DNA of 64,000 nt from Candidatus Curtissbacteria bacterium (GCA_016183325.1 JACPEV010000011.1:36782-100781); one strand, 5' to 3'; numbered from the stretch's first letter, positions 14,805 to 58,890 are shown. Translations and numbers: made by a program. Notes: generated from the sequence alone by a model not told the origin.

Positions 14805-14872
14805 GTCATTCTGGGAAGCGAAGCGACTCCAGAATCTAATTTTAGTAAGGATTCTGGACAAGCCAGAATGAC
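14805..14872. mobile_element. MITE-like palindromic element, copy 1 (TIR GTCATTCTGG / CCAGAATGAC; inner pair CCAGAATC / GATTCTGG)
   Basis: 68 bp, intergenic, non-coding. Same termini and architecture as the elements at 50999, 54912 and 58784. Confidence 0.7.
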
Positions 14873-14963
14873 AAAATGATGGTTTGTTCTGATATTCTTT
14901 TCTCATTATCGTGAGGTCAATAGGTTTTCAGCAAACTTATTAGATTCATGATTTGACTTTTTG

Positions 14964-17963
14964 TTAAAAGCTCTTTGCCAAAAATTGACCGGTGTATGAA
15001 GATTTGACTCTTGCAACTTCACTAGGTGTACCTTGGGCTACAATTTGGCCTCCGCCGTCGCCACCTTCGGGGCCAAGATCAATTATCCAATCGGTGTTTC
15101 TGATAACGTCCATGTTGTGTTCAATAATAATCACCGTATTACCGGTGTCGACTAGGCGCCTGAGGATTGCAAGAAGTCTTTCGATGTCGGCAAAATGTAG
15201 ACCGGTCGTCGGTTCATCTAATATGTATAAAGTTTTCCCGGTTGCCCTTTTTGAGAGCTCGGTTGCCAACTTTACTCGTTGTGCTTCACCGCCTGAGAGT
15301 GTTGGGGCCGGTTGTCCGAGCCTGATATAGCCAAGGCCAACGTCGTAGATTGTTTCAAGTTTTTGTTTTATCTGCGGGATGTTTTCAAAAAAAGAAAGCG
15401 CTTCTTCGACGGTCATTTCCAGAACTTGCGAGATATTTTTGTTTTTATAATGAATTTCCAGGGCTTCTTGATTGTAACGTTTCCCGTTGCAAACTTCACA
15501 GTCGACGTAGACGTCCGGTAAAAATTGCATCTCGATTTTAACTTGACCATCGCCTTCACAGGCTTCGCAACGGCCGCCTTTGACGTTAAACGAGAAACGT
15601 CCCGGTTTGTAGGCTCGAACTCGCGCATCAGTCGTTTTGGAAAACAAATCCCTGATAAATGTAAAAACACCTGTGTAGGTTGCAGGGTTTGAACGAGGAG
15701 TTCTGCCGATTGGTGATTGGTCAATTAATATTACTTTATCAAGATTTTGGGTGCCATGAATTGTTTTGTGCTGGCCTGCTTTTTGACGTGAATGATAAAA
15801 CTCACTCGCGAGGGCATTATAGAGAACATCGTGAATTAATGTAGATTTTCCTGAGCCTGAAACACCAGTGATACAAATAAATTTTCCGAGTGGGAATTCA
15901 ACGTCGATGTTTTTAAGATTATGTTCTTTTGCTTCAAGGACGGTAAGGACGTTGTTACTGTTTGAGCTTGCCCTGTTACCATACGGCACCAGGCTTGTCG
16001 ACCCTTCGATTTTACTCAGGGTCGACACTGAGTTTATCGAATGTGTCGAGAACTTACCATTCCCCAACACCATACGGTGCAAGGTCGCTCGAAGAATATT
16101 ACTTATATCCACTTTTTTCTTTCCCGAAAGATATTTTCCAGTAAGGGAAGAAGGGTTTTTGATAATTTGCAGCGGGGTTCCTTGGGCTACAATTTTGCCT
16201 CCATGTTCGCCGGCTCCAGGGCCGAAATCCAGAATTTCGTCTGACGCTAGCATCATTTCTCGGTCGTGCTCGACAACTATGACGGTATTTCCGAGCTCTC
16301 TTAATTTCTTGAGAGTGGTGATAAGCCTGTTGTTATCCCGTTGGTGCAATCCAATTGACGGTTCATCAAGTACGTAAAGAACCCCAGATAAACCTGAGCC
16401 GATCTGGCTGGCGAGCCTAATTCGTTGAGATTCTCCCCCTGCGAGCGTGTTTGCCGTCCGATCGATGGTTAGATATTCAAGGCCGACATCCAAGAGAAAC
16501 TGAACCCTTGACATTAATTCTTTTAGGATTGGTGTCGATATTTTCTTATCCCGATCAGAGAGTAATTCACGACTTGTGGATAATTCCTTTAGCCACAAGA
16601 GCAGTTTAAAAATGGAGAACCTAGCAACTTCTGAGATGGATTTTTGTATGATTGTTACAGACAAAGCTTCTTTCTTGAGACGTGAACCTTTACACTCTTG
16701 GCACGTGTCTATCCTTATAAACTTTTCGATCTCGAACCTGACATAATTTGATTCCGTGCCCTTATACTTGCGCTCTAAATTATTTATCACGCCTTCGTAA
16801 TTGGTGTCCCAAGAAACAATACGGCCGTAACGATTCGGACCGGTGATGGTGTATGCTTGATCTCCTGAACCATAAAGCAAAATCTTTCTTGCTTCTTTAG
16901 ACAGATTTTCAATTGGTGCATCCATAGGAATTTTGTTTTCTTTAGCAACTGTTACCAAAACTCTCCAGGACCAGCTGTCGGATTCGACTAGGCGTGCCCA
17001 AGGAAGAATTCCGCCCTCTGAAATGGTCAGGTTGGGATTTAGTACAAGATCGGGGTCGACCTTTCGCAGTACGCCTAGTCCGTTACAAGTTGGACACGCT
17101 CCATGGGGGGAGTTGAAAGAAAACGTTCGTGGCTCAATTTCTGGGAGTGAAATATTGTCTTTGGGGCAGGCGAATTTTTCCGAAAAAAGATGATCTTTTA
17201 GCGCGTTTGGAAACTCGGGAATATCAAAAGTCTTATCCAATATCTCGGCAACGATGATTGTGCCTTCGCCAAGTTTTAAGGCCTGTTCTACTGATTGAAA
17301 CAGGCGGCTGTTTTCGGCGGGGATTGTCAGTCGGTCGATAACTGCATCAACTGAGTGTTTATTTGTCTTTATGAGCACAAAATCTTCGTCAAGTGATTTA
17401 ACCTTTCCGTCGATTCTGACATAACGGTATCCTTGCTTTTGCAAGTCTTTAAATAACTCTTTAAATTCACCTTTTCTGTCTTTAACAACTGGGGCAAGAA
17501 GAAGGATTCTGGTGAGTAGCTTGTGGCTTGTAGCACGTAGTTTTTGGATTTCGTCGACTATTTGTTGAGTTGACATGTGGGAAATTTCCCTGCCGCATAT
17601 AGGACAGTGTGGGTGACCAATTCTGGCAAACAAAAGTCGCAAATAATCGTAGATTTCCGTAACTGTTCCAACAGTGGATCTAGGATTGTGGGAAGTAGAC
17701 TTCTGGTCGATGGAAATAGCAGGAGAAAGGCCTTCAATCGAATCAACGTCGGGTTTATCCATAACTCCCAGGAATTGACGTGCGTATGAAGCTAGCGATT
17801 CGACGTAACGGCGTTGTCCTTCGGCATAGATGGTGTCAAACGCCAAGGAAGACTTGCCCGAACCAGAAATTCCCGTAAAAACAACTAGTTTGTTCTTGGG
17901 AATCTCGACATTGATATTTTTGAGATTATGTTCTCGGGCGCCTTTAATAATTATTTTGTCCAT
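14964..17963 (-). CDS. uvrA: Excinuclease ABC subunit A
   Basis: 999 aa. Two ABC modules ([12 protein letters not shown]; [11 protein letters not shown]) and zinc-finger cysteines. Confidence 0.95.
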
Positions 17964-17980
17964 GTCAAAGCTTTAATTAT

Positions 17981-18000
17981 ATCAGAATTTTGATTCTGAT
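17981..18000. promoter_or_regulatory. Perfect 20-bp palindrome ATCAGAAT-TTTG-ATTCTGAT overlapping the uvrA promoter (-10 TATAAT on the minus strand, ~13 nt from the ATG); candidate SOS/LexA-type operator
   Basis: 8-bp inverted arms with a 4-bp spacer, sitting between the divergent uvrA start and ORF 18004. Confidence 0.45.
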
Positions 18001-18003
18001 GGT

Positions 18004-18522
18004 TTGTCCAAAATTCCACCCCGAGTAGAGCACTGGAAAGAACTGACATCTTACGTATATACTTTGCCAATGCAAGAGGTACTTGAACCTGAATCTCTCG
18101 AATCTTTGTTTAGAGAGGTAATGATCATGTTTGTCCTCACAGCTGAAGAAATTGTTGAGGATCACGGGGATGGTATAAATTTTGTCGTTGAAACGTTTTC
18201 AACCGAAAGTCTTTTAAAAGGAATCGATCGAAAAGATTCAGCATTTCTCCGTTTGATTAAGTCTTCATCAGGAGTAATACCGGATTTGTTTCCTGAAAGT
18301 TCTTCTGAAGTTAGAATGTCCAGAGAACAAAATACTTATGATTTTTCAATTTCCTGGACTATCGTTGGAGGAACAATAATCAGTCTCGTCTTTAGTGGCT
18401 ATGAGGAAAAAACTACCAACGAGCCAAATTTATTAGGTGAAGCAAGAATTGCTAATAAAATTGTACACAATTTGAATTCGGCCCTTTGGGACTTGGATAA
18501 TTTACAATCAGACCGCCGGTGA
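18004..18522 (+). CDS. Hypothetical protein (divergent from uvrA; true start possibly the internal ATG near 18070)
   Basis: Only sizeable ORF in the 545-bp uvrA–uvrB spacer. The first codon is TTG. Confidence 0.35.
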   Translation: MSKIPPRVEHWKELTSYVYTLPMQEVLEPESLESLFREVMIMFVLTAEEIVEDHGDGINFVVETFSTESLLKGIDRKDSAFLRLIKSSSGVIPDLFPESSSEVRMSREQNTYDFSISWTIVGGTIISLVFSGYEEKTTNEPNLLGEARIANKIVHNLNSALWDLDNLQSDRR

Positions 18523-20511
18523 TTTAAGAATACTTATCTGATCACGAAATTGGGCCGCCCTTTCAAAATCAAGAATCCTGGCGGCGGCTTTCATTTCTCG
18601 AGTTAAAAGTTTTATGAGTTTTTGCTTGTCGGTTGATAGCATATTGCCCTCTTGGGCCCGTTTGACAGCAGACTGGATAACATCGTCTTTGACCATTCGT
18701 TCCTTTTCCTCGTAAATTTTTTCGCGATCAATAAGTTTTTCGCGTATCGGTTTTTCGACCGATTTAGGGGTGATCCCGTGTTGTTGGTTGTACTGGCGTT
18801 GTATCTTTCTTCTTCTTTCCACTTCCGCGATTGCGCGCTTCATCGATCCTGTTTCGACATCTGCGTAGAGTATGACCGATCCTTCAATATGCCTTGCTGC
18901 CCGGCCCATTGTTTGAATAAGAGACGTTTCTGAGCGAAGGAATCCTTCTTTATCGGCATCCAGAACCGCAACTAGCGCAACTTCAGGTAGGTCTAAACCT
19001 TCCCTGAGTAAATTTATACCTACAAGAACATCATAATTACCCGATCTGAGGTCGTCCAGGACGTCTTGACGATCAAGTGTTTGAATCTCCGAATGTAAAT
19101 ACTGAACCTTTAGTCCCTTTTCTTGTAAGAAATCTGTGAGTTCCTCGGCCATGCGTTTAGTCAGTGTGGTGACTAATGTTCTTTGATGTTTGGTTGCGCG
19201 TTTTTCGATTTCTTTAATTAAGTCCTCGATTTGGCCTTTTGATTTGCGAATTGAGATCTCGGGATCAATTAATCCGGTAGGGCGAACTAATTGTTCAACG
19301 ACTTGATCGCTTAAATTTAGCTCGTACTGGGCCGGGGTGGCAGATGTATAGATTACTTGACTAATTTTTCTCGCAAACTCCTCAAACTTCAATGGTCTAT
19401 TGTCGAAAGCGGATGGAAGACGAAAACCGAAGTCCACAAGCATTTCTTTTCTGGCTCTGTCTCCGTTATACATGCCATTGATTTGAGGAACGGTCATATG
19501 CGATTCGTCGATTATTAAAAGGTAGTCTTTTGGGAAATGCTCGATTAAAGAGTATGGCGGGTCACCGGGTTTCCTGCCGTCAAAATGACGCGAGTAGTTT
19601 TCGATACCTTTGCAATAACCGAGCGTTCTTATCATTTCCAAGTCATAGTTTGTTCTCTGCTTAAGTCTGTGAGCTTCAAGCATTTTGCCAGATTTTTCCA
19701 AAACTTTTAATCTTTCTTTGAGTTCTTTCTTAATGCTTTCTGTGGCATTCAGAGTTGTTTCGTCTGAGGCGATGTAGTGTTTGGCGGGGTACAACCAAAT
19801 TAATTCTGATTCTTCTATTTTTGTTCCTGTAATTGGACTGATTACTTCAAGCTTTTTGATAGTTTGATCATGAAAATTGATCCGTAAGGCATTATTTTCA
19901 TAGGCAGGCAAAATTTCAACATTTTCTCCACGAATTCTGTATGTACCTCGCCTGAAGTCGTAATCGTCGCGTTCGTACTGAAGCTTGGCAAAGCCCCTCA
20001 AGAGATCACTTCTTGACCAAATGTCGCCTACCTTGAGACCAAGCCTGGCGTTCTGATACTCTGTGGGTGATCCCAAATTGTAAATCGCCGAAACCGAGGC
20101 TACGACCACAACATCGCGTCTTGTCGCAAGCGAGGTTGTCGCTGCAAGGCGAAGCCTGTCTATTTCTTCATTTACCTCAGTTTCTTTTTCGATATAGGTA
20201 TCGGTTGCTGGCAGATAGGCCTCCGGTTGATAGTAATCGTAATAAGATACAAAATATGAAACTGCATTTTGGGGAAAGAATTCTCGAAATTCCTGGTATA
20301 GCTGCGCTGCCAGTGTTTTGTTGTGGGAGATAACTAAAGTTGGTTTTTGGACCTTTTCGATGACATTGGCGATGGTGAAGGTTTTTCCGGAACCGGTGAC
20401 TCCAAGTAATGTTTGATGGCGAAAGTTTTTATTAAGGCCTTCGACAAGTTTTTCGATTGCTTGCGGCTGGTCGCCGCTTGGCCTGTAAGTTGATGTAAGT
20501 GTAAATTTCAT
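18508..20511 (-). CDS. uvrB: Excinuclease ABC subunit B
   Basis: GVTGSGKTFT Walker A, helicase motifs, C-terminal UVR domain (ARILDFERAAQFRDQI). Confidence 0.95.
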   Translation of the reverse strand: MKFTLTSTYRPSGDQPQAIEKLVEGLNKNFRHQTLLGVTGSGKTFTIANVIEKVQKPTLVISHNKTLAAQLYQEFREFFPQNAVSYFVSYYDYYQPEAYLPATDTYIEKETEVNEEIDRLRLAATTSLATRRDVVVVASVSAIYNLGSPTEYQNARLGLKVGDIWSRSDLLRGFAKLQYERDDYDFRRGTYRIRGENVEILPAYENNALRINFHDQTIKKLEVISPITGTKIEESELIWLYPAKHYIASDETTLNATESIKKELKERLKVLEKSGKMLEAHRLKQRTNYDLEMIRTLGYCKGIENYSRHFDGRKPGDPPYSLIEHFPKDYLLIIDESHMTVPQINGMYNGDRARKEMLVDFGFRLPSAFDNRPLKFEEFARKISQVIYTSATPAQYELNLSDQVVEQLVRPTGLIDPEISIRKSKGQIEDLIKEIEKRATKHQRTLVTTLTKRMAEELTDFLQEKGLKVQYLHSEIQTLDRQDVLDDLRSGNYDVLVGINLLREGLDLPEVALVAVLDADKEGFLRSETSLIQTMGRAARHIEGSVILYADVETGSMKRAIAEVERRRKIQRQYNQQHGITPKSVEKPIREKLIDREKIYEEKERMVKDDVIQSAVKRAQEGNMLSTDKQKLIKLLTREMKAAARILDFERAAQFRDQISILKSPAV

Positions 20512-20679
20512 AGAAATTTTAATTATATCTCAAAAATTTGCCCCAATCCAGGATATTACGTTCAATATGATAGAATTTCCAATTATTCGCGAGGCAGAGA
20601 TATTGTTGTTTCGATCATAGCGCCAGTTGAGTAAGGTCGACCAATATTAACAACAATTATTGAAGTTATTGGTATTTTT

Positions 20680-25255: not shown

Positions 25256-25338
25256 AGGTTGACAACTGACAACTGACCCTTCGATTCACTACGTTCGCTC
25301 AGGGCAAGCAATTGACTTTTATATAATGTCGATTAACA

Positions 25339-32578: not shown

Positions 32579-33866
32579 ATGTTTGACTAGTTGGCTGATC
32601 CTCCTTAGTCAGGATTTTTGATGTTACTTTCCCTCTGTGAAATTGTACTTTAAGTTTGGAGCCGATGGCAACCTGGGAAGAGTTTTTGATGACACGATTA
32701 CTTTCATCAGTTGTAATACTATATCCACGAGCTAGCGTGTTTAATGGCGAAAGAATGATCAGCTTTTCGTTAAGGCTGTTAAGTAAACTGGATTTCTCCT
32801 GCAAAAAATATTTGCTGGTGTTTTTGATGGAAACGAGGTATGTTTCAAGTTTTTGAGAATTTTTGACAATAATTCGATCTTCTGCCGTTTTGAGGCTTTG
32901 TTTTAGGAAATCGAGATGGCGCGGGAACTGTTGGAATTTTTCTTTATGGTAGGCGAGCCTGTGGAATGTTAAATCAAGTGTTTGAGAACTTGAAGAGATC
33001 AGTCTTGCGATCGACTTTTCGAGAAGATCTCGGTAGGCTGTCAATTTTTCTTCTAAGGATAAAAAATCTGCAGTTATTATTTTGGCAGCATCTGTCGGGG
33101 TTGAAGCGGCAATATCGGCCACAAGCTGGGCAATGGTGACATCTTTTTCGTGGCCGACACCGACGACTATCGTGGTTTTGGCGTGGAAAATACTGTGTGC
33201 AACTTTCTCATCGTTGAAAGCAGCAAGGTCTTCAAGAGAACCACCGCCTCTAACAAGAACAATGGCGTCGAAACCGCCTTTCTCCGCTTTCTGAATAGCT
33301 TTGACAATCTGATTGACTGCGGAAGATCCCTGAACCATAACATCAAACAAAGTGACATTTATGACGGGAAAGCGATCAACGCTATGCCGTTTGAAATCAA
33401 ACCAGGCATCGGCAATTTTGCTGGTGATGACGGCAATTTTTGTGGGGTATGATGGTAAAGGCTTTTTGCGAGACTTATCAAAATAGCCTTTTTGCTCGAG
33501 TTTCTTTTTGAGTTTTTCAAGTTCGGCCAAAAGAATCCCTTCGCCAAACTGTTCAAGCTGGTGAATGTACATTTGAAATGTGCCGTCCCTTTCATAAAGA
33601 GAAAGATTGCCAAGAGCTAGGACTTTGATACCGTCGGCCATTGCAAAATCGACAGATTGAAAAATCGAAGGTTCCAAAATACAGGGGAGTTTATAGCCAG
33701 TGTTGGGATCTTTTAGGTCGAAGTAAAGATAACGATAATGATGGTTTAATCCTTTGAAAGAGGAAATTTCGCCCTCGACCCAGAATGACATGTTCTCGAG
33801 CGTTTGGCGGGTAAGCGCATTAACCTCTGAAACGCTATATACGGACTTACCGTCAATTGTTTTCAT
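32544..33866 (-). CDS. xseA: Exodeoxyribonuclease VII large subunit
   Basis: N-terminal OB-fold (SVSEVNALTRQTLENMSFWVEGEISSF) and catalytic core VLVRGGGSLEDL. Confidence 0.85.
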   Translation of the reverse strand: MKTIDGKSVYSVSEVNALTRQTLENMSFWVEGEISSFKGLNHHYRYLYFDLKDPNTGYKLPCILEPSIFQSVDFAMADGIKVLALGNLSLYERDGTFQMYIHQLEQFGEGILLAELEKLKKKLEQKGYFDKSRKKPLPSYPTKIAVITSKIADAWFDFKRHSVDRFPVINVTLFDVMVQGSSAVNQIVKAIQKAEKGGFDAIVLVRGGGSLEDLAAFNDEKVAHSIFHAKTTIVVGVGHEKDVTIAQLVADIAASTPTDAAKIITADFLSLEEKLTAYRDLLEKSIARLISSSSQTLDLTFHRLAYHKEKFQQFPRHLDFLKQSLKTAEDRIIVKNSQKLETYLVSIKNTSKYFLQEKSSLLNSLNEKLIILSPLNTLARGYSITTDESNRVIKNSSQVAIGSKLKVQFHRGKVTSKILTKEDQPTSQTYGQGLKLQKGD

Positions 33867-33930
33867 TTTTCAAAGTATAGCATTTTTGACCTGACACATA
33901 TTGATATTTTAAAGTACTAGATTTGGTCTG

Positions 33931-34026
33931 TTGACATGAAATCTTTCATATATTATATTGTCCCATGCTTATCGCAAGATAGGCAATTTGAAAGGGCTTC
34001 TCGCAAGAGAGGCCTTTTCTTTTTTG
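33931..34026 (+). ncRNA. Candidate small RNA module 1: TTGACA-N17-TATATT promoter, GNRA-tetraloop hairpin (CTTATCgcaaGATAGG), intrinsic terminator (GGGCTTCTCgcaaGAGAGGCC plus T-run)
   Basis: Complete promoter-to-terminator unit of ~60 nt with no ORF, on the strand opposite to the flanking genes. Paralogous to 34586-34678. Confidence 0.45.
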
Positions 34027-34027
34027 A

Positions 34028-34077
34028 TGGTAGAAGGTAGAAGATAGAAGATGGAATGTGAGGATAGAAGGTAGACA
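34028..34077 (+). repeat. Iteron-like array of (G/A)(G/A)TAGAA heptamers (GATGGTAGAA GGTAGAA GATAGAA GATGGAA ... GATAGAA GGTAGAC)
   Basis: Tandem motif array immediately 3' of the four-helix-bundle gene. An inverted counterpart lies at 34488-34552. Confidence 0.6.
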
Positions 34078-34485
34078 TTAGAAAGATTTCCAGTTCCTGC
34101 GAAGATTTGTTAATTTACCACCTAGCATTTGATATCTTTTAAGTAAAGCCTCGCAAAAATCTTTTTCCCAATAGTTTAAATCTCTTGCTGTATCTATGTG
34201 CACTTCCATTTCATTTGCAGACCCAAGTAAACTGTCAAGGTGTTTTTTAAATTCCTTCTCGAATCTTCTCTTCGCCCATCCTTCAGCAATGTTAGAGGGG
34301 CAAGATTTTGAAGCTCTTCTCATTTGCGATGCCAAATCGTTTCTCTCGTAAACAGGAAATTTCTCAACTGCTTTATGGACAATCAGCATCAGCTGGTAAG
34401 CCTCTTGGTATACTTCGAGGTCGCGAAAACTCTTGATCATTTTGCTTTTAAGGAAAGGGTTGCACTTTCTATCGGTACATTTCAA
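34078..34485 (-). CDS. Four-helix-bundle protein (TIGR02436 / PF05635 '23S rRNA-intervening-sequence protein' family, Avd-like fold)
   Basis: FRDLEVYQEAYQLMLIVHKAVEKFP...ERNDLASQMRRASKSCPSNIAEGWAKR matches the family signature. Confidence 0.8.
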   Translation of the reverse strand: MKCTDRKCNPFLKSKMIKSFRDLEVYQEAYQLMLIVHKAVEKFPVYERNDLASQMRRASKSCPSNIAEGWAKRRFEKEFKKHLDSLLGSANEMEVHIDTARDLNYWEKDFCEALLKRYQMLGGKLTNLRRNWKSF

Positions 34486-34487
34486 AT

Positions 34488-34552
34488 CTATACTCTATCA
34501 TCAAAATCTACCGTCTACCCTCAATCATCTATCATCTAATTATGATTGATCT
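34488..34552 (+). repeat. Inverted copy of the GGTAGA/GATAGA iteron array (reads TCTACC/TCTATC on the plus strand)
   Basis: atctaccgtctaccctcaatcatctatcatcta. With 34028-34077 it forms inverted terminal arrays bracketing the four-helix-bundle gene. Confidence 0.55.
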
Positions 34553-34585
34553 AAATTGATATTCTTAGGTACTAGATTTGGTCTG

Positions 34586-34678
34586 TTGACAAGGGTCGTT
34601 TACTAGTATATATTTGTCGATGCTTATCGCAAGATAGGCAATGAAAGGGCTTAGGGGGTAACTCTTAAGCCTTTTCTT
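34586..34678 (+). ncRNA. Candidate small RNA module 2: TTGACA-N17-TATATT promoter, identical hairpin ATGCTTATCGCAAGATAGGCAAT, terminator GGGCTTAGggggtaactCTTAAGCC plus T-run
   Basis: Paralog of 33931-34026. Lies in the upstream (5') region of the four-helix-bundle gene but on the opposite strand. Confidence 0.45.
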
Positions 34679-37504: not shown

Positions 37505-37954
37505 TAGATATGTATTTTAAGTTAATGATCGTAAAATTAGCAATTAGACATCTTGATTTTCGGGTTTTCTTTGGATAGAATAACTATATTAAAAATCAAA
37601 ACTCAAAAATCAAAATTACATTCAAGAAATTTGTACTTGATCCCCATAATTTTGATATTTGATATTTAATATTTGGTATGGCTTCTGACACATTTATCAA
37701 CGAACAAGTATCCGTCTGGGCTTTTTTTGACCCTTCGGCGGCGTCATCTCATATTTTCCCAATTGCCATGAATTGGCGAAGACGACTTGTCAAATTCCAA
37801 AAATTAATCCTTTCGACAACTAAAAGAGTTGGCGATGCAAAAATACTGAACTTAATTTGTGCTTCCGATACTGCCTGCTTTGAGCTTGAATATAACTCTG
37901 ACAGCCACTTGTGGAGACTAGTGAAAGTAATGAGTCAGGAGTAACGAAGAAAAT

Positions 37955-38092
37955 TGATGATAGACGGTAGAAAATAGATGGTAGATATAGATAATAGAAA
38001 ATAGATGGTAGAAGGTTGATATTCTATCTTCAAACTTCTATCATCAAAATCCATTATCTAGCTTCAACCGTCTACCATCAAACGTCAGATCT
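37955..38092. promoter_or_regulatory. Palindromically arranged GGTAGA/GATAGA iteron array upstream of dinB (direct half ~37958-38015, inverted half ~38023-38090)
   Basis: GATGATAGAC GGTAGAA AATAGAT GGTAGAT ... ATAGATGGTAGAAGG / ...TCTATCTTC...TTCTATCATC...CCGTCTACCATC. Shares the AGATGGTAGAAGGT core with 34028-34077. Confidence 0.55.
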
Positions 38093-39559: not shown

Positions 39560-39800
39560 TTGTTCGAGGCTGAAAGCCGAGAACTAAACTTCTCGCTCAC
39601 GCTCGAAGAGTAATAACGTATCAGCGATTGTGAGCTCTTACGTATCAAATGAGTTATTGACATTGTAAAAATTCTTCGACTGCGCTCAGAGTTTTTTATC
39701 TAATGAAGATCCTTCGATAAACTCAGGATGTTTACCTAATCTTTCGACTATGCTCAAGACGTTCAGTCGGTAAAAATTCTTCGACTGCGCTCAGAATCTT
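39560..39800. repeat. Repeat-filled convergent intergenic spacer, including a 26-bp direct repeat GTAAAAATTCTTCGACTGCGCTCAGA (39665-39690; 39771-39796) and degenerate relatives
   Basis: Motif family CTTCGA(C)...GCTCAGAG / TCGAAGGGCT, also present at 4058-4115, 40820-40860, 42541-42660 and 42945-42975. Confidence 0.55.
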
Positions 39801-42498: not shown

Positions 42499-42560
42499 CT
42501 CAATGGTAGAGCAATCGCCTTTTAAGCGATTGGTTACAGGTTCGATCCCTGTGCGGGTCA
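42489..42560 (+). tRNA. tRNA-Lys (anticodon TTT)
   Basis: Acceptor GGCCCGC/GCGGGTC, anticodon stem ATCGC/GCGAT, loop CTTTTAA, T-loop TTCGATC. Confidence 0.85.
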
Positions 42561-42572
42561 CTCTTCGACTCG

Positions 42573-42594
42573 CCCTGAGAGTAATCGAAGGGCT
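42573..42594 (+). repeat. 22-bp hairpin-containing direct repeat CCCTGAGAGTAATCGAAGGGCT, upstream flank of the third GIY-YIG gene
   Basis: Counterpart CCCTGAGTTTATCGAAGGGCT at 42947-42967, immediately after the gene. Confidence 0.6.
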
Positions 42595-42661
42595 CGCTCA
42601 GAGTAAACTCGAGTTGAAGAACCCTGAGCGAATTATAATGTTGAGAGAATCGAAACATTAA

Positions 42662-42934
42662 ATGAGTCGAAGGGCTAATGTATCTTGGTACGTATATATA
42701 GCTAAAGCAAAAACTGGCAGATATTACACAGGTATAACCACAAGTCCAGATAAAAGAATTATTAAACATAACTCCGGGAAGGGTTTAAAGTTTGCCATAG
42801 AGCAAGGCCCATTTGAATTGGTCTATGTCTCAGAAGCATTTCCAAATAAGTCAGAAGCAAGAAAACGAGAAATTCAAATTAAAGGCTGGTCGAGAGAAAA
42901 GAAATTAAAACTAATAAGCGGCGAGTGGAAATAA
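42662..42934 (+). CDS. Small GIY-YIG nuclease, YhbQ/UPF0213-like (90 aa)
   Basis: WYVYIAKAKTGRYYTGITTSPDKRIIKHNSGKGLKFA...LVYVSEAFPNKSEARKREIQIKGWSREKK closely follows the YhbQ pattern. Confidence 0.8.
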   Translation: MSRRANVSWYVYIAKAKTGRYYTGITTSPDKRIIKHNSGKGLKFAIEQGPFELVYVSEAFPNKSEARKREIQIKGWSREKKLKLISGEWK

Positions 42935-50998: not shown

Positions 50999-51080
50999 GT
51001 CATTCTGAACTTGTCTGATTTTATCGACCCGAATGGGTTTCAGAATCTACAACAAGATCCTGAATTGAATTCAGGATGAC
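50999..51080. mobile_element. MITE-like palindromic element, copy 2 (GTCATTCTGAA ... TTCAGGATGAC; inner TTCAGAATC / GATCCTGAA)
   Basis: Same terminal and inner inverted-repeat design as copy 1, with degenerate termini. Sits in the typA / DEAD-box divergent spacer. Confidence 0.6.
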
Positions 51081-52736: not shown

Positions 52737-52821
52737 TAAATTTGAAAATTCAATAGAAGGTGGATAAGATTCTCGTTGAATTACTTGATGGCTTTTGTGA
52801 AAACAAGCTATAATTGGGTCG

Positions 52822-53076
52822 ATGGTTGAAAGATCTTCCCCCTGTCAACATTACTGGTTAATTGAACCACCTCAAGGTCCAACTTCACCTGGAGTGTGCA
52901 AACATTGTGGAGATAGCAAAACTTTTTTAAACAATCTTGATGGAGGATACAGAGATAGAGATGATTTGCTAAGTGATTCTACGGGGGCATTTGATACTCA
53001 AGATGCCCAGCAAAGGGCCCGCAGGCATATTACAAGGCTGTTCAGCGCAAGTAGATCCCAGCTTGGAGGTGATTGA
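52822..53076 (+). CDS. Small Cys-containing protein (84 aa), possible zinc ribbon
   Basis: PCQHYW...CKHCG. Confidence 0.3.
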   Translation: MVERSSPCQHYWLIEPPQGPTSPGVCKHCGDSKTFLNNLDGGYRDRDDLLSDSTGAFDTQDAQQRARRHITRLFSASRSQLGGD

Positions 53077-53079
53077 TCT

Positions 53080-53328
53080 TTGGCAAAAGTAACAATGTAC
53101 ACAACTAGAACTTGTCCCTTTTGCAAGATGCAAAAGGACTATTTGTCAAGTAAAAATATTTCCTACGATGAGGTTTTGGTTGATGAAAAACCGGAAGAAG
53201 CCCAAAAAATGATTGAGATTTCTGGGCAAATGGGTGTGCCGTTTACTGTTATTGATAAAGACAATGGACAGCGGGAAACGATTTTGGGATTTGATCAAAA
53301 GAGAATTGATGAAGCCCTGGGAATTTGA
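53080..53328 (+). CDS. Glutaredoxin/NrdH-like redoxin
   Basis: MYTTRTCPFCKMQKDYL (CPFC active site) and C-terminal GVPFTVID. Confidence 0.75.
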   Translation: MAKVTMYTTRTCPFCKMQKDYLSSKNISYDEVLVDEKPEEAQKMIEISGQMGVPFTVIDKDNGQRETILGFDQKRIDEALGI

Positions 53329-53339
53329 TCTTGGAAATT

Positions 53340-53550
53340 AGTTATTAGAAAGCTTGCTTCGAGCAAGTTCTCTTGCGAGAAGTGGAAAGTGGTATTGGAA
53401 ATCAGAAGTGGGAAATGGTTGAAAATGAATTTTCCATTTTCAATTTTCCACTTTCCATTACTGCTTTCAAACTTCCAAAAACCATTTTCAAAATTCATCC
53501 CTTATTTCTTCATACTTGATACTTAATACTTGATACTTAATACTTAAGAT
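53340..53550. repeat. Intergenic array: inverted GGAAAGTGG/GGAAATGG motif blocks (53380-53470) followed by a 4x ATACTTRAT tandem repeat (53508-53546)
   Basis: tggaaagtgg...gtgggaaatgg // ccattttcaattttccactttcca; then atacttgatacttaatacttgatacttaatactta. Confidence 0.6.
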
Positions 53551-53552
53551 AT

Positions 53553-54893
53553 ATGCGCATTTTTTTCTACGGGGCGTGCAGGGAAGTTACGGGATCGAAT
53601 ATTTTGGTGGAGGTTGCAGGCAAAAAAATTCTTCTTGATTGCGGTATTTTCCAGGGCAGTCGGATGGCAGAGGAAAGGAATTATTCACCTTTTGTGTTTG
53701 ATGCAAAAAGTATCGATGTGGTAGTGGTTTGTCACGCTCATCTGGACCATACTGGCAGATTACCAAAACTGGTAAAAGACGGTTTTCGCGGAAAAATTTA
53801 TGCAACTGCCCCGACTGCTCAGTTAACCGAGCTGGTGCTTGATGATAGCGAAAAGCTGATGAGGGAAGAATCCCAGAGGGATAACCATCCACCGCTTTAC
53901 GGTCCTGCAGAAATTGAGACGACGATGGAGCTTTTTACCACAATCCCTTACGACGAAGGCGTTGAAATTTCTCCCGGTATTAAAATTACCCTGAAAAACG
54001 CCGGACATATTCTTGGATCTTCTGTTTTAATTTTAGAAACTGAAGGAAAAACTCTTGTTTATACAAGCGATCTTGGCAATGCACCATCTGAGCTTTTATC
54101 TCCTCCTGAAAGGATTGAAAAAGCAGATTTTGTGATTTCGGAAACAACTTATGGCGGTAGAGTTCACGAAGATATCACTAAACGTCATGCGAAGTTAAAT
54201 TCGATAATTAACTCCACAATTTCCGAAAACGGTGTTTTAATGATTCCGACATTTGCCATTGAGCGCACTCAAGAGTTACTTCACGATATAGAGCATTTTT
54301 GTACGATCGCCAATTGCACGATCCCGACTTTTTATTTAGATAGTCCGTTGGCGGAAAAGGTGACTCGTGTTTTTCAAAAGTATCCTGAATATTTAAATCC
54401 CAGGCTTAATCTTGCCCATGATAATGATATTTTTGGACTCTCTCGCTTACGGATCACTTCAACTGTCGATGCGTCGAAACAAATTGATGATGCGCCTAAC
54501 CCTAAGATAATTATAGCCGGATCAGGTATGATGAACGGAGGAAGAATTTTATACCATCTGCAAAATTATATCGGTGATGCCAACAGCACACTTTTAATAG
54601 TAAGTTATCAGTCTGGCGGCACTTTGGGCAGACGACTTATCGACGGGGAGAAAGTTATTAAGATTTTTGGTAAAAAGTATAACGTTGCCGCAAATGTCGT
54701 GGCCATTGGATCTTACAGCGCTCATGCTGATGCTCCACAGCTTTTAAGGTGGCTTTCTACTATTTCGGGCGTCAAGAAAATCTTTTTGGTTCATGGGGAG
54801 GGTGATCAGGCGCTGGCTTTCGGCGAGTCGGTGAAGGAAAAAATGGGTGTTGATGTTATCATTCCGCAACAGGGAGAAATGTATGAATTATGA
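53553..54893 (+). CDS. MBL-fold β-CASP RNA-metabolising hydrolase (RNase J-like)
   Basis: VVCHAHLDHTGRLP (HxHxDH), β-CASP motifs downstream, C-terminal H in LVHGE. Confidence 0.8.
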   Translation: MRIFFYGACREVTGSNILVEVAGKKILLDCGIFQGSRMAEERNYSPFVFDAKSIDVVVVCHAHLDHTGRLPKLVKDGFRGKIYATAPTAQLTELVLDDSEKLMREESQRDNHPPLYGPAEIETTMELFTTIPYDEGVEISPGIKITLKNAGHILGSSVLILETEGKTLVYTSDLGNAPSELLSPPERIEKADFVISETTYGGRVHEDITKRHAKLNSIINSTISENGVLMIPTFAIERTQELLHDIEHFCTIANCTIPTFYLDSPLAEKVTRVFQKYPEYLNPRLNLAHDNDIFGLSRLRITSTVDASKQIDDAPNPKIIIAGSGMMNGGRILYHLQNYIGDANSTLLIVSYQSGGTLGRRLIDGEKVIKIFGKKYNVAANVVAIGSYSAHADAPQLLRWLSTISGVKKIFLVHGEGDQALAFGESVKEKMGVDVIIPQQGEMYEL

Positions 54894-54911
54894 ATTGTTA
54901 AATTGTTTTTT

Positions 54912-55020
54912 GTCATTCTGGGGAGTGAAATCGAGTCTACTCGATGAAACGAATCCAGAATCATACTAAGAATGCAGATTCTGGACAAGCCCTAGACCCG
55001 GACCTTAGGGCCAGAATGAC
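54912..55020. mobile_element. MITE-like palindromic element, copy 3 (GTCATTCTGG ... CCAGAATC ... GATTCTGG ... CCAGAATGAC) with internal insertions
   Basis: 109 bp between the β-CASP gene and rpe. Confidence 0.7.
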
Positions 55021-55031
55021 GTATAGGAGAT

Positions 55032-55697
55032 ATGGCTAAAATAATACCGGGAATTTTAACAAATAGCGAAGAGGAGTATCATGAGCGGCTTCTTAAGGCC
55101 GAACACGTCAGCGACTTAATTCAAATTGATGTGGTGGACGGCAAATTCTCTGCCAATACTACAATCCAAACGGACGTTATTAAAAAATATCTTTCTTCAG
55201 CCCAACTTGAAATTCAACTAATGGTTGTTTTTCCTCAAAACTACATTGATGATCTAGCACCTTTAGAATACGTTTCCAGAATTATTTTCCCTTTTGAAAT
55301 TCATGGGGACGTTCGAGACGATATCTACTTAATCAAGAGATTCGGTAAACAAGCCGGAATTTCGCTAAACCCCGAAACCCCAGTTAAAGCTGCTATCCAT
55401 TTTTTTGACGATATAGACATCTTGCTTTTGATGACTGGTAAACCCGGATATTCAGGCCAAAAGTTGGGTGAGGACACTTACGATAGAATTAAAGAGGTTA
55501 AGAAAATAGTTCCTGATTTACCTATCGAAATCGATATTGGTGTTAACTTTGAAAACGCAGCAAAACTTGCTCACGCAGGAGCTGATTTTTTAGTTGCTTC
55601 GAGTGCTCTTTATGGCGCGCCCGATTTTAGAGTCGCTTATGAGAAACTTGCCAAATTGGCGGAAGTTAATGAAAAGAAAATGGTTGCTGGAAAGTAG
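55032..55697 (+). CDS. rpe: Ribulose-phosphate 3-epimerase-like
   Basis: LIQIDVVDGKFSANTTI and LLLMTGKPGYSGQKL resemble Rpe motifs. Divergent. Confidence 0.65.
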   Translation: MAKIIPGILTNSEEEYHERLLKAEHVSDLIQIDVVDGKFSANTTIQTDVIKKYLSSAQLEIQLMVVFPQNYIDDLAPLEYVSRIIFPFEIHGDVRDDIYLIKRFGKQAGISLNPETPVKAAIHFFDDIDILLLMTGKPGYSGQKLGEDTYDRIKEVKKIVPDLPIEIDIGVNFENAAKLAHAGADFLVASSALYGAPDFRVAYEKLAKLAEVNEKKMVAGK

Positions 55698-55826
55698 AAA
55701 ATAGTAATAGAAAGTAGAAATGGGAAATTAGAAATTTAACTCTTAACTATTTTCCAATCTCAAATTTCCATTACCATTTTCAAGTCTCTAGTTAACCAAT
55801 TTCTAGTACTTTGTTAATATTAAATT
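55698..55826. repeat. Intergenic inverted array of GAAAGTAGAAA/GGGAAATTAGAAAT motifs
   Basis: gaaagtagaaaatagtaatagaaagtagaaatgggaaattagaaat // attttccaatctcaaatttccattaccattttcaag. Confidence 0.55.
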
Positions 55827-56423
55827 ATGGCCAAAATTCAAAATGTAACCTTTTTGGGCTATTCAGATGCAAAAGAAAATGAAACCCTTTTTAAGCAAGC
55901 CTTCGATGTCGCAAAGCTTTGCGCCCAGCACGGATACACCGTAATCAACGGGGCTGGGCCTGGCGTGATGAAAGCGGCGACAATGGGCGCAAAGAGCGTT
56001 GGAGGAAAAACAATCGGTATAACTTTTTATCCTGTTGGCTTGCAGCTTTTTGAGGGCAGGGACGAAACAAACGAAGTGGACGAGCTGATTGTTGAGGACA
56101 ATTATCTGGCGAGAACCTTGAAGTTACTTGAGATTGGACAAACATTTATCTTTTTTAATGGGGGAACCGGTACTATTTCGGAATTTGCCATGGCTTGGGG
56201 TTTGGCACGGCTTTACTATGGCCATCACAAACCTTTGATTTTATACGGAGATTTCTGGCAGGAAATTATTTTTGCATTTACCAAAAACATGTATATCAGA
56301 GCTGAAGAAAGATTAGTTTTTAAGATTGTTAATAAAGCTGAAGATGTAATTTTCGCAATCGAGGAAACAGCAAAAAAAATAGCCAGTCATACAGAAGAAA
56401 AATCAGGCCCCTTTTCTGTATGA
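55827..56423 (+). CDS. LOG-family / TIGR00730 Rossmann-fold nucleotide-binding protein
   Basis: GGGPGVMKAATMGA and FIFFNGGTGTISEF. Confidence 0.8.
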   Translation: MAKIQNVTFLGYSDAKENETLFKQAFDVAKLCAQHGYTVINGAGPGVMKAATMGAKSVGGKTIGITFYPVGLQLFEGRDETNEVDELIVEDNYLARTLKLLEIGQTFIFFNGGTGTISEFAMAWGLARLYYGHHKPLILYGDFWQEIIFAFTKNMYIRAEERLVFKIVNKAEDVIFAIEETAKKIASHTEEKSGPFSV

Positions 56424-56430
56424 GTGTTTC

Positions 56431-57429
56431 TTGCTCATGGATAAAATATTTGAATTAATTACAATTGGTGATTCTACCGTCGACACTTTTCTTAAGATAC
56501 GTGATGCGACAGTGGAGTGTGATATTAATCATGAAGACTGCAAGATTTGCGTTAAGTATGGTAGCAAAATTCCGGTTGATTCGATCGGACATGGGGTTGC
56601 CGGAAATGCAGCAAATGTGGCGGTTGCGTGCTCAAGACTAGGTCTCAAGTGCGCTATTTATACAAACCTGGGAGATGATGAACCAGGCAAGAGTATTTTC
56701 GACGAGTTAATCCGGCAACAAGTTGCCCCTGATTATATCAGGACAAATCCAGGAAAAAATTCTAATCTTTCTGTTGTAATGACTTATCAGGGGGAAAGGA
56801 CTATTTTTGTTTACCATCAAGACTGGTATTACAAACTGCCTAATCTTGCCTCATGCTCTTGGGTTTATTTAACTTCAATGGCCGAATCCTTCACGAATTC
56901 TAACATCATGGATGAAGTTTGCCATTATATCGATAAGTCGCGCGCAAAACTGGCTTTTGGTCCGGGAACCTACCATTTAAAAGCAAGTGTCGCACGTTTC
57001 CCAAAAATCCTAGAAAGATGCCAAGTTTTATTTGTGAACCTTGAAGAAGCAAAAACAATCCTAGGCATTGACGAAGCAGAAAAAGTAAACGTGAGAGACC
57101 TTCTTTCGAAAATGCTGCTTTTGGGACCAAAAACCGTGGTCATAACTGATGGTGAGGAGGGATCATATGCAACTGATGGACAGGTAGACCTCAAGGTTGG
57201 AATATTATCTTCTCAGGTGATCGAAAAAACAGGCGCAGGTGATGCTTATGCTTCCGGTTTTATTTCTGCTCTTTTTTTGGGCCGGTCACTGGCGGAAGCA
57301 ATGGTCTGGGGAACAATTAACGCGTCTTACGTGATTCGAACTGTCGGTGCCCAAAACGGGTTGTTGACAAGAGAACAGTTGATAAAGTATCGAGGGGAGC
57401 TTAAAGGATTGACGGCAACTAAATTTTAA
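56431..57429 (+). CDS. PfkB-family carbohydrate/nucleoside kinase
   Basis: N-terminal ITIGDSTVD; GNAANVA; C-terminal GAGDAYASGF. Confidence 0.8.
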   Translation: MLMDKIFELITIGDSTVDTFLKIRDATVECDINHEDCKICVKYGSKIPVDSIGHGVAGNAANVAVACSRLGLKCAIYTNLGDDEPGKSIFDELIRQQVAPDYIRTNPGKNSNLSVVMTYQGERTIFVYHQDWYYKLPNLASCSWVYLTSMAESFTNSNIMDEVCHYIDKSRAKLAFGPGTYHLKASVARFPKILERCQVLFVNLEEAKTILGIDEAEKVNVRDLLSKMLLLGPKTVVITDGEEGSYATDGQVDLKVGILSSQVIEKTGAGDAYASGFISALFLGRSLAEAMVWGTINASYVIRTVGAQNGLLTREQLIKYRGELKGLTATKF

Positions 57430-57433
57430 AAAC

Positions 57434-58396
57434 ATGCCCAGCGTATATGTAACTGCCGAAATCCCCCAAAACGGCATCACGATTTTAACGAAAAGAGGGT
57501 TTAAAGTTCAGTCTAACTTGGGGCGTAGATTATCTAAAAATGAGCTCAAGGAGATTTTCGCCAAATATGATGGTGTGGTAACTTTATTAACCGATCACAT
57601 TGACGAGGAGATTATCAAGTCCTCTAGAAATCTTAAAATTATTGCTAATTTTGCTGTAGGTTTTGACAATATTGATGTTTTGGCGGCAAAAAAACATGGC
57701 GTTGTGGTTACGAATACTCCTTCGGTAGCCAATATTTCTGTTGCCGAGCACACAATGATGCTAATTTTAGCCTGTCAAAAAAGATTAATTGGGGCAGATA
57801 GATATGTCAGGGCGGGGAGATTAGAACGCTGGGACCCACTTATGTTTTTATCACCCCAAGTTTGGGGAAAAACGATTGGGATTGTGGGACTTGGAGGGAT
57901 TGGTCTGACTGTTGGACAGATGGCGCTTCAAGGGTTTAAGATGAAAATTTTCTACAACGACATAATTCGTGCCCAGGATTTTGAAATGATAAGTGGGGCT
58001 AAGTTTGTAGACCTGGAAACTCTTCTTTCAAGTTCTGACATTGTAACTCTCCACGTGCCCCTGACTGTTAAAACGCATCACATGATTGATAAAAAAGAGT
58101 TTTCTCTTATGAAAAAAACTGCGATTTTTGTTAATACTTCAAGAGGATCTATCGTCAATCAGGAGGCACTTATTTGGGCTTTAACAAATGGGATTATTGC
58201 GGGAGCGGGGCTGGACGTATTCGAAAACGAACCTCACGTTCCCCACACGCTTTCGGTCCTTGGTAATGTGATTTTGACTCCACACATTGGATCTGCCACT
58301 TTTGAGACTCGAGAGGCTATGGCCAAAATTGTCGCAGAAAATATTATTGATGTTTTTGAAGGCAGAACGCCTTTGGGACTTGTTAAGGTTGATTAA
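57434..58396 (+). CDS. D-isomer-specific 2-hydroxyacid dehydrogenase (glyoxylate/hydroxypyruvate reductase or PGDH-like)
   Basis: GIVGLGGIGLTVGQ NAD-binding motif and catalytic R/E/H pattern. Confidence 0.85.
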   Translation: MPSVYVTAEIPQNGITILTKRGFKVQSNLGRRLSKNELKEIFAKYDGVVTLLTDHIDEEIIKSSRNLKIIANFAVGFDNIDVLAAKKHGVVVTNTPSVANISVAEHTMMLILACQKRLIGADRYVRAGRLERWDPLMFLSPQVWGKTIGIVGLGGIGLTVGQMALQGFKMKIFYNDIIRAQDFEMISGAKFVDLETLLSSSDIVTLHVPLTVKTHHMIDKKEFSLMKKTAIFVNTSRGSIVNQEALIWALTNGIIAGAGLDVFENEPHVPHTLSVLGNVILTPHIGSATFETREAMAKIVAENIIDVFEGRTPLGLVKVD

Positions 58397-58417
58397 CTTT
58401 TAAACTTACTACAAGCC

Positions 58418-58771
58418 TCAACCGGTGGCGTTTTTGATGAGATCGATTTTGGGGGGATCTTGGGTATGATCGATGGCAACAACGTCAATACGTTCTAAAA
58501 GCGGTAACTTTTTGTATGAGTTGGCGTTTCGGTAGAATTTAGCGGCACGCACTAAAAAGAAGATTTTACTTTTGGTGATGGCTTCTTGAGGGTAGCCATA
58601 GGCAAGACTGGTTCTGGTTTTAACTTCGATAAAGACCAGGGTGCTTTTTTCAAGTGCAACGATATCTATTTCGCCGCCTCTAATTCGGAAATTGCGATCG
58701 ATTATTTTGTAGCCGCGCCTTTTTAAAAATTCTACGGCTAAGTCTTCCCCATGTTTACCAATATTTTTCAT
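58418..58771 (-). CDS. yraN: YraN-family (UPF0102) endonuclease
   Basis: GEDLAVEFLKRRGYKIIDRNFRIRGGEIDIVALE...FIEVKTR. Confidence 0.8.
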   Translation of the reverse strand: MKNIGKHGEDLAVEFLKRRGYKIIDRNFRIRGGEIDIVALEKSTLVFIEVKTRTSLAYGYPQEAITKSKIFFLVRAAKFYRNANSYKKLPLLERIDVVAIDHTQDPPKIDLIKNATG

Positions 58772-58783
58772 ATCTTTTCTATT

Positions 58784-58890
58784 GTCATTCTGGAGTCGAG
58801 TGAAACTCGACGATAGAATCTATTGTTGGTTATTAAAGCGGATATTGATTTAAGGGATTCTATCGCTCACTTCGTTCGCTCCAGAATGAC
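58784..58890. mobile_element. MITE-like palindromic element, copy 4 (GTCATTCTGG ... AGAATC ... GATTCT ... CCAGAATGAC); supplies the last ~14 codons and stop of rnhB
   Basis: 107 bp between yraN and rnhB, overlapping the rnhB 3' end. Confidence 0.7.

Follow-up and report, generated by a model that had tools for sequence, protein, structure and literature searches.

Palindromic elements of a Candidatus Curtissbacteria genome as probable gene-less pairs of Ssn-related motifs

Four hairpin doublets and their setting in the window

A stretch of 64,000 nucleotides (nt) from the genome of a Candidatus Curtissbacteria bacterium (GCA_016183325.1, JACPEV010000011.1:36782-100781; here the window, in which the coordinates of all copies are counted) carries four short palindromic elements next to genes that include uvrA, typA, rpe, and rnhB. 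A preliminary description of the sequence had presented them as a nested-palindrome family resembling miniature inverted-repeat transposable elements (MITEs), and all four are present exactly where it placed them, with lengths of 68, 82, 109, and 107 nt for copies 1 to 4, respectively (Table 1). Comparison with other genomes makes it very likely that the elements are gene-less, inward-facing pairs of Ssn-related motifs (SRMs), of the type known as NTS in Neisseria, and would be cis sites of Ssn, a small single-domain GIY-YIG nuclease that acts exclusively on single-stranded DNA (ssDNA).

Perfect GTCATTCTGG/CCAGAATGAC ends are found in copies 1, 3, and 4, and the inner inverted pair CCAGAATC/GATTCTGG is found in copies 1 and 3, the inner pair of copy 4 (CGATAGAATC/GATTCTATCG) being related to it. 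Copy 2 departs from the consensus that headed the preliminary description, with termini GTCATTCTGA/TCAGGATGAC and inner pair TCAGAATC/GATCCTGA. The palindromic family is real, but each member is better read as two inverted hairpin units around a spacer of 8 to 35 nt than as a single nested palindrome, and the supposed 10-bp terminal inverted repeats (TIRs) are the 5' handle plus the stem of two independent hairpin units. These units, 23 to 51 nt long, follow the template Y-GTCAT-stem-loop-stem'-C: all eight of the window start with Y-GTCAT and carry a C after the stem. Perfect local stems of 7 to 9 bp are formed in copies 1 to 3, and the units of copy 4 combine a 5-bp outer stem with an inner hairpin. 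In copies 1 and 3, a long-loop (L) unit, GTCATTCTGG-GGAGCGAAGCGACT-like-CCAGAATC, faces a short-loop (S) unit, GTCATTCTGG-CTTGT-CCAGAATC; in copy 3, GC hairpins are nested in the loops of both. The subtype of copy 4 (GTCATTCTGGAG..CGATAGAATC) was also found at loci L022, L030, L049, L083, L088, L091, and L102 of the genomes surveyed below.

Copy 2 is a third subtype, or sister subfamily, and not a decayed copy, because both of its units keep a perfect local stem (8 or 9 bp). The two stems differ (ATTCTGAA/TTCAGAAT and ATCCTGAAT/ATTCAGGAT), each being internally compensated, with a T>C change in the right unit relative to the left matched by A>G; the same ATTCT/ATCCT pairing of units also occurs next to an ssn gene on a Planktothrix plasmid. 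Since these local stems are perfect and the termini of the copy mismatched, what is conserved and under selection is the hairpin of each unit together with its handle, rather than any pairing of the outer ends.

The density and folding of the elements exceed those of shuffled sequence. The 10-mer occurs 13 times in the window with at most one mismatch versus 3.5 ± 2.0 times in shuffles (maximum, 8), and a half-unit pattern occurs three times versus none; a generic search for GTCAT followed by a stem of at least 6 bp found eight sites versus a shuffle mean of 1.9 (maximum, 4), six of the eight being units of copies 1 to 3. The secondary structure anticipated for the RNA is also found: on either strand, the predicted folds of all four copies (-26 to -47 kcal/mol) are far more stable than those of shuffles (z of -3.4 to -6.9). 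A solo exact GTCATTCTGG at 33780-33789 (minus strand, within xseA) is without partner or hairpin and was taken as a chance occurrence (∼0.1 expected).

Gene context was established from open reading frames (ORFs) and Pfam domains. On this basis all copies are intergenic, and the family is noncoding in this window, as had been proposed, with the right unit of copy 4 read as the 3' end of rnhB: the element contributes 13 codons (RHSGANEVSDRIP) plus TAA, close to the ∼14 codons first estimated. RnhB homologs align to residues 1-202/204 of the 220 only; in relatives, the protein ends at about residue 202-204, and the stop of rnhB and the start of yraN overlap (ATGA). No record matching the extended protein was found in an exact-protein lookup, and in the window no gene part other than the 3' end of rnhB is affected. 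The element near uvrA lies downstream of that gene; in a Daviesbacteria locus (L091), an element directly precedes uvrA, a position that is empty in the window. In a Magasanikbacteria contig (L073, 4111-4208), an element of a subtype different from that of copy 1 is found, both lying 71-91 nt downstream of the uvrA stop, which could reflect either coincidence or a favored site.

Table 1. Elements of the window with their units and neighbors, the extended rnhB gene, and ssn cassettes of other CPR (Candidate Phyla Radiation) loci (cassette positions are those of the loci named)
Feature	Position	Strand	Description
Copy 1	14805..14872		left, uvrA stop; right, start of a transglutaminase-like gene; both genes on the minus strand
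Copy 1, L (long-loop) unit	14805..14836	+	GTCATTCTGG-GAAGCGAAGCGACT-CCAGAATC; perfect 7-bp local stem, T before, C after
Copy 1, spacer	14837..14849	.	13 nt, TAATTTTAGTAAG; position of the ssn gene in full-length relatives
Copy 1, S (short-loop) unit	14850..14872	-	minus strand: GTCATTCTGG-CTTGT-CCAGAATC
Copy 2	50999..51080		left, typA; right, DEAD-box helicase gene; divergent
Copy 2, left unit	50999..51047	+	CTGA-stem subfamily; GTCATTCTGAA...TTCAGAATC; 8-bp local stem
Copy 2, right unit	51056..51080	-	minus strand: GTCATCCTGAAT-TCA-ATTCAGGATC; 9-bp local stem
Copy 3	54912..55020		upstream, stop of a beta-CASP RNase gene (bCASP) at 18 nt; downstream, rpe start at 11 nt; co-directional
Copy 3, L unit	54912..54962	+	extra hairpin ATCGAGTCTACTCGAT nested in loop
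Copy 3, spacer	54963..54976	.	14 nt
Copy 3, S unit	54977..55020	-	loop begins ACAAG (plus strand); nested hairpin CCCTAG...CTTAGGG
Copy 4	58784..58890		upstream, rnhB; downstream, yraN start at 12 nt; co-directional
Copy 4, left unit	58784..58820	+	second subtype; GTCATTCTGGAG-TCGAGTGAAACTCGA-CGATAGAATC
Copy 4, spacer	58821..58855	.	35 nt; holds the rnhB stop TAA at 58850-58852, minus strand
Copy 4, right unit	58856..58890	-	minus strand: GTCATTCTGGAG-CGAACGAAGTGAG-CGATAGAATC; translated as the RnhB tail RHSGANEVSDRI
rnhB	58850..59512	-	RNase HII (PF01351); ORF crosses the right unit of copy 4 and ends within the spacer
ssn cassette, L041	1854-2201		Saccharibacteria
ssn cassette, L055	5200-5602		Curtissbacteria
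ssn cassette, L080	2633-3045		
ssn cassette, L158	2956-3301		Woykebacteria, between recR and yqeY

Distribution of the family and gain of copies

An architecture-pattern scan of one genome per species returned at least 117 stretches, among which complete two-ended elements of 64 to 159 nt are present in at least 55 loci. Nearly all of these are in metagenome-assembled genomes (MAGs) of CPR bacteria (Patescibacteria), with hosts among Levy-, Roizman-, Curtiss-, Gottesman-, Davies-, Shapiro-, Berkel-, Magasanik-, Sacchari-, and Parcubacteria, and the same L/S consensus recurs throughout with variable spacers. One-sided matches extend the family to a superfamily of the form GTCATTCTG(A/G)-GCGAAGCGA-AGAATC ... 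GATTCT-TCGCTTCGC-(T/C)CAGAATGAC, which is spread over Acidobacteriota, Planctomycetota, Nitrospirota, Chloroflexota, Bacteroidota, Verrucomicrobiota, and others; a Rickettsiaceae MAG (L117) is also among the matches to the architecture pattern. Of the loci retrieved, the one most like the window is a Candidatus Daviesbacteria MAG, with 75% nucleotide identity over uvrA and its neighbors.

Of 57 complete elements placed in their gene context, 25 lie between co-directional genes, often just 5 to 20 nt from the stop of one and the start of the next, 6 lie between divergent and 6 between convergent genes, 11 are at the edge of a locus, and 9 are inside an ORF. The notion that elements in tight tandem spacers mark split genes or introns was rejected, the flanking ORFs being distinct, complete genes: at five co-directional loci searched against Pfam, the recognized neighbors are different genes, each complete at the end that faces the element, and 3 of the 10 ORFs are without a Pfam domain. 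In six of the nine in-ORF cases, the insertion is genuinely in frame and leaves the Pfam domains on either side intact, the host proteins being RecF, TrmD, FemAB, a prepilin peptidase (peptidase A24), ArgRS (inside DALR_1; an example junction peptide is KKADNNVILGSAATPESNSKKDSGQARMTDVL), and a class I tRNA synthetase of the Val/Ile type.

No target-site duplication (TSD) was found in 53 of the 55 elements searched (0 nt), and in the other 2 it amounts to 1 nt. The same search, which also covered extended palindromes, detected no flank signal besides a pyrimidine at position -1, present before GTCAT at 105 of 110 element ends and the sole flank preference. Orientation relative to host transcription is mixed, with nine elements in the same and five in the opposite direction (14 assignable cases). 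The lack of TSDs, the use of both orientations, and residence in frame fit a DNA-level selfish repeat.

At the gathering threshold, Rfam recognized only tRNAs in the window, and nothing was detected at the elements of CPR or other loci at an E value of ≤1. Viral contigs gave seven matches, with real family members on one contig only and ssn on none, and the matches of the element strings in the literature were primer coincidences only. An Acido-Lenti-1 (RF01687) array at L104 4450-6071, in a Terriglobia contig that also bears a unit doublet (7518-7610), was rejected as a relative, the sequences being unrelated.

In the Magasanikbacteria contig L073, the elements at 4111-4208 and 6810-6907 have nearly identical units around a 28-nt spacer that is inverted (25/28 to the reverse complement), which suggests that recombination between the inverted inner arms has flipped it. 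In a Gottesmanbacteria contig (L095), two 65-nt elements 5.3 kb apart (697-761 and 6066-6130) are exact reverse complements of each other and spacerless, CCAGAATC directly abutting (T)GATTCTGG.

Two of the window copies can be dated relative to related genomes. A protein-anchored scan of metagenome contigs yielded 39 loci, of which ∼25 keep the order bCASP-rpe-LOG-pfkB-2HAdh-yraN-rnhB-rplS-(1166-amino-acid [aa] gene) at 53-79% aa identity. No element is present at the bCASP/rpe or the rnhB/yraN junction in the ∼25 syntenic relatives, and no unit of the window type occurs in their 402 kb. Judged by their absence from these relatives, copies 3 and 4 are lineage-specific insertions; the window copies would have entered the lineage once it had diverged from the relatives that have been sequenced. 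A Logan contig of 3,893 bp is identical to window positions 54993-58885 and ends within copies 3 and 4, as would be expected of an assembler breaking at repeats, and thus gives an indirect hint of the high genome-wide copy number first suggested. The spacer entered by copy 3 also contains one of the periodic AT-rich intergenic repeats, of the (AAATTGTT)n and TATTTGGTAT types, that are found at 54894-54911, 14709-14741, 11468-11500, and 37586-37679. The AAATTGTT repeat is kept at the bCASP/rpe spacer in two relatives (L126 and L134) and is therefore older than the insertion of copy 3.

A GIY-YIG nuclease gene between the same units

In four CPR loci, the same L and S units bracket an ORF of ∼96-99 aa that encodes a GIY-YIG nuclease (ssn) and occupies the spacer. 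The order is L unit, 14-15 nt, ssn, and S unit, and the S unit encodes the last ssn codons together with TGA. For example, in the L041 cassette, GTCATTCTGG-GGAGCAAGGCGACT-CCAGAATC is followed after 15 nt by an ORF that reads ATG ... CAG ATT CTG GAC AAG CCA GAA TGA C, the S unit supplying the last seven codons and the stop. In sequence type, the L unit of copy 1 in the window agrees with the unit that precedes ssn in L041 and L158, and the S unit of copy 1 is identical to the one that encodes ..ILDKPE* and the ssn stop in these two loci. Because the same two units bracket the GIY-YIG gene in other CPR genomes, the window copies are, at the level of sequence, miniature gene-less forms of an SRM-ssn-SRM cassette.

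The association extends beyond the four loci. A homolog search with the CPR GIY-YIG protein returned 1,853 proteins; in the best 120 of the 1,853, the C termini were examined, and 58 of them end in unit-encoded peptides, 43 as ..ILDKPE* and 11 as DSGQARMT-type tails. Inward-facing units or whole doublets lie beside ssn homologs on Rhizobium, Planktothrix, and Spirosoma plasmids. The closest plasmid-borne homolog (57% identity; L169, Planktothrix agardhii plasmid p1, 18250-19713) sits between an MmeI-type restriction-modification gene and DISARM drmA and is flanked by tandem partial units (repeated TGTCATTCTGAG) as well as complete doublets. Along its entire length, the CPR protein shares 43% identity (pairwise E value of 8e-28) with a 94-aa GIY-YIG protein of Neisseria gonorrhoeae, the gene of which is surrounded by nine canonical NTS repeats in 3.3 kb. 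Single domain, 94 aa long, and NTS flanked, the gonococcal protein matches the description of SsnA and is presumably its ortholog. Searches of PDB and NCBIfam with the CPR Ssn gave no match.

The Neisseria system was described by Chenal et al. (Nat Commun 2025; PMC11893778), who defined NTS as CGTCATTCCCGCGMAVGCGGGAATCYRG and generalized it as SRM. SsnA is a 94-aa single-domain GIY-YIG nuclease (cd10448) that binds the hairpin solely as ssDNA, not as RNA, and makes its cut a few nucleotides before it; cleavage depends critically on the bases that precede the palindrome, and binding on the C that directly follows it (PMC11893778). Genes of ssn homologs are SRM flanked, and the authors compare the NTS-ssnA-NTS arrangement to insertion sequences (ISs) and to repetitive extragenic palindromes (REPs) with their REP-associated tyrosine transposases (RAYTs) (PMC11893778). 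The main text of that paper makes no mention of CPR bacteria, MITE-like miniatures, or in-frame insertions (PMC11893778).

The window units share with NTS the Y-GTCAT handle, the hairpin, and the C: C-GTCAT-TCCCGCG-MAV-GCGGGAAT-C in Neisseria corresponds to T-GTCAT-TCTGG-loop-CCAGAAT-C in the window. In both systems, copies are dispersed and a single-domain GIY-YIG gene of ∼94-99 aa has units on both sides, and the pyrimidine preference before GTCAT matches the H of the SRM pattern. The differences lie in the stems (TCCCGCG/CGCGGGA versus TCTGG/CCAGA), in the loops (5-33 nt and often with nested hairpins in CPR bacteria versus 0-5 nt in the published SRM pattern), and in the arrangement, the CPR units forming gene-less inward doublets with a conserved L/S asymmetry and an ssn stop inside the S unit, whereas in the Neisseria locus examined the units nearest to ssn point outwards. 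On this reading, the elements represent a variant, in sequence, of a repeat family already known rather than an element of a new kind. Neisseria dRS3 and intergenic mosaic elements are likewise clustered intergenic hairpins, dRS3 consisting of ATTCCC-N8-GGGAAT palindromes, about half NTS (PMC11893778); the Neisseria repeats form large clusters around surface-protein genes, whereas the CPR elements are isolated doublets in tight operon spacers.

Several observations weigh against this assignment or against the mobility built on it. No ssn gene is encoded in the 64-kb window, and the loops of copies 1 and 3 differ a good deal; these two are therefore not recent copies of each other. The published SRM search sequence, HGTCWYN(0-2)YYVSBRHN(0-5)WNVSBRGN(0-2)RNCYNB, matches nothing in the window and only 4 of 58 CPR elements, the units failing it because of their stem composition and loop length; as positive controls, it gave nine matches in the Neisseria locus and four in the Rhizobium locus, and it found nothing at the single cyanobacterial and the single Bacteroidota ssn locus. 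The gene-less doublets may have arisen either by deletion of ssn from a cassette or as preexisting doublets into which ssn was inserted. Finally, SsnA has been shown to restrict incoming ssDNA in Neisseria, not to transpose (PMC11893778).

The window contains other repeats. A gene with a PF05635 domain (23S-rRNA-intervening-sequence protein [IVP], four-helix bundle; 34078-34485, minus strand) is flanked by low-complexity inverted repeats at 34022-34083 (GATGGTAGAAGGTAGAAGATAGAAG-like) and 34494-34539, and the unit is bracketed by an 88-nt direct repeat of 80% identity (33900-33987 and 34555-34642) that holds a TTGACA..TATATT promoter-like pair and a small hairpin; the region looks like a separate inserted cassette. 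A second (T/G)AGA(A/T)GGTAGA-type block at 37947-38082 forms a 61-nt inverted pair with 34022-34083, 3.9 kb away. The IVP gene was considered as a partner of the elements and rejected: its flanking repeats are different, and tblastn found a single such gene in the 117 element-bearing loci, not adjacent to an element. GC-rich palindromes CTGAGCGAAG..TCGAAGGG/ATTCTGAGCGCAGTCGAAGAAT at 4071-4097, 25276-25302, 39665-39695, 39770-39800, and 42560-42680 resemble the loop and core of the pan-bacterial units but lack the GTCAT handle; they could be units in decay or members of another hairpin family. A 73-nt direct repeat of 88% identity (2237-2309 and 4118-4190) ends in ACGGGAGG(G/A)(C/G)CGTCCC; its second copy lies just upstream of a ribosome-binding site and an ATG at ∼4216, a related inverted pair GGGGACGGTCC...GGACCGTCCCC is present at 5971-6138, and the repeat could be a shared leader or a regulatory element.

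Possible mode of spread and its alternatives

When the DNA is single stranded, during replication, repair, or DNA uptake, each unit would fold separately, and a cognate Ssn, encoded elsewhere or lost, would bind the hairpin with its 5' GTCAT handle and 3' C and introduce a nick on the 5' side of the handle, at a distance of a few nucleotides. The two units of an element lie on opposite strands and face inwards, so that nicks are predicted just outside both ends of the element, a geometry that would fit movement of the whole element; cleavage and copying by the CPR Ssn we infer from homology. The route favored here would be a selfish one, in which nicks trigger recombination or repair and thereby spread the element; effects on transformation or transcripts, if any, would be secondary. 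Only tentatively can the gene-less doublets be proposed as an active nonautonomous mobile element that uses the ∼96-99-aa GIY-YIG ssDNA nuclease as its "transposase"; by a TSD-less mode of transposition or homing, it would be seeded across CPR bacteria into the spacers of operons and, in frame, into essential genes.

A benefit to the host is compatible with such selfish spread. Restriction of incoming ssDNA by NTS and SsnA has been demonstrated in Neisseria meningitidis (PMC11893778), and the proteins are homologous; the repeats might therefore be marks that, with a resident Ssn, restrict or trim ssDNA taken up in natural transformation. It is unlikely that this is their main role, because nothing in the window bears on transformation, close relatives are without these units, and the in-frame insertions in essential genes and the disrupted rnhB-yraN stop/start overlap look like tolerated damage. 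Action at the RNA level is rather improbable, whether as bidirectional intrinsic terminators, as 3'-end stabilizers, or as RNase III sites in operons. The strong folds on both strands would suit it, and most family members (25 of the 46 classifiable) lie in short spacers between co-directional genes and are therefore probably transcribed. However, the bidirectional terminators of the preliminary description find little in the sequence to match them: neither strand of copies 1, 3, or 4 has a T-tract after the hairpin, and the only unit flagged by the terminator scan is the right one of copy 2, which has a weak T tail; copies 3 and 4 also lie within co-directional gene strings, at 11 to 18 nt from the adjoining stop and start codons. 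The mixed orientation (9 to 5) likewise argues against the strand-specific mRNA hairpins suggested there, as do the in-frame copies within essential ORFs, since the termination or cleavage of transcripts would do harm there, and the absence of an Rfam match. Furthermore, the conserved nonpalindromic GTCAT handle and the trailing C are recognition features of an ssDNA nuclease, and SsnA does not bind RNA. A promoter role was also rejected, since the -35-like matches that ATGACA creates at the element ends are wrongly placed for the neighboring genes.

Two kinds of transposon relative were weighed as well. A classical MITE, that is, a deletion derivative of an IS with 10-bp TIRs moved in trans by a TSD-making DDE transposase, would account for the terminal inverted repeats, the small size, the dispersal, the presence/absence polymorphism, and the existence of longer gene-carrying versions with the same ends. 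This origin is nonetheless extremely improbable, because TSDs are lacking, the ends of copy 2 mismatch, so that matching ends are not required, and the handle within the supposed TIR is conserved across many phyla, unlike IS ends; the full-length IS that had been expected to share these termini was not found in a transposase-bearing form, the longer versions encoding the GIY-YIG nuclease only. In REPINs, reportedly set out by Bertels and Rainey in 2011, short REP hairpins are said to form inverted doublets copied by a single-copy RAYT (Y1/HUH, IS200/IS605 type), the gene of which is flanked by the same hairpins. The CPR elements are alike in their two inverted hairpin units around a spacer, the lack of TSDs, the ssDNA hairpin logic, and the partner gene flanked by hairpins. 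They differ in that the handle is GTCAT and not the GTAG typical of REPs, that REPs are species specific whereas this family is shared across phyla, and that the partner is not Y1/HUH: the gene between or beside the units encodes a GIY-YIG protein in four independent CPR loci and in Rhizobium, Planktothrix, Spirosoma, and Neisseria, and no Y1 transposase was seen in the ORFs examined, beyond which no specific search was made. True REPINs are thus very improbable, and REPIN/RAYT is an analogy, not an identity, as in the comparison with REP/RAYT drawn by Chenal et al. (PMC11893778). The earlier suggestion of mobilization by an enzyme encoded elsewhere accordingly survives in its REP-like logic, hairpin repeats being tied to such an enzyme, but the partner is an ssDNA nuclease rather than a classical transposase.

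The in-frame copies recall the Rickettsia palindromic elements, which Ogata et al. reportedly described in Science in 2000 as palindromic repeats lying in frame within essential protein genes. The CPR family is also found in frame in essential genes, adding short peptides, a likeness of description only, and the TSD-less process proposed here may perhaps be the same as the one from which the Rickettsia elements originated. Rickettsia is listed among the genomes with more than 300 SRMs (PMC11893778).

The analysis ties an unexplained CPR repeat to a recently characterized enzyme-and-site system, the Ssn nucleases. In the annotation of CPR genomes, odd C-terminal tails (RHSG.., VILG.., ..DSGQARMT, and ..ILDKPE), spurious small ORFs, and breaks in assemblies can be traced to these elements; in biotechnology, every variant of the sequence would imply a cognate ssDNA nuclease of new specificity. 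The published pattern misses the CPR-wide variant and also gave no match at one cyanobacterial and one Bacteroidota ssn locus; the family therefore probably extends further than has been reported. Finally, the empty orthologous sites, the lack of TSDs, and the in-frame copies in argS, trmD, recF, and other genes provide comparative evidence, beyond the main text of the original paper, for mobile SRM-ssn-SRM cassettes and their miniatures.

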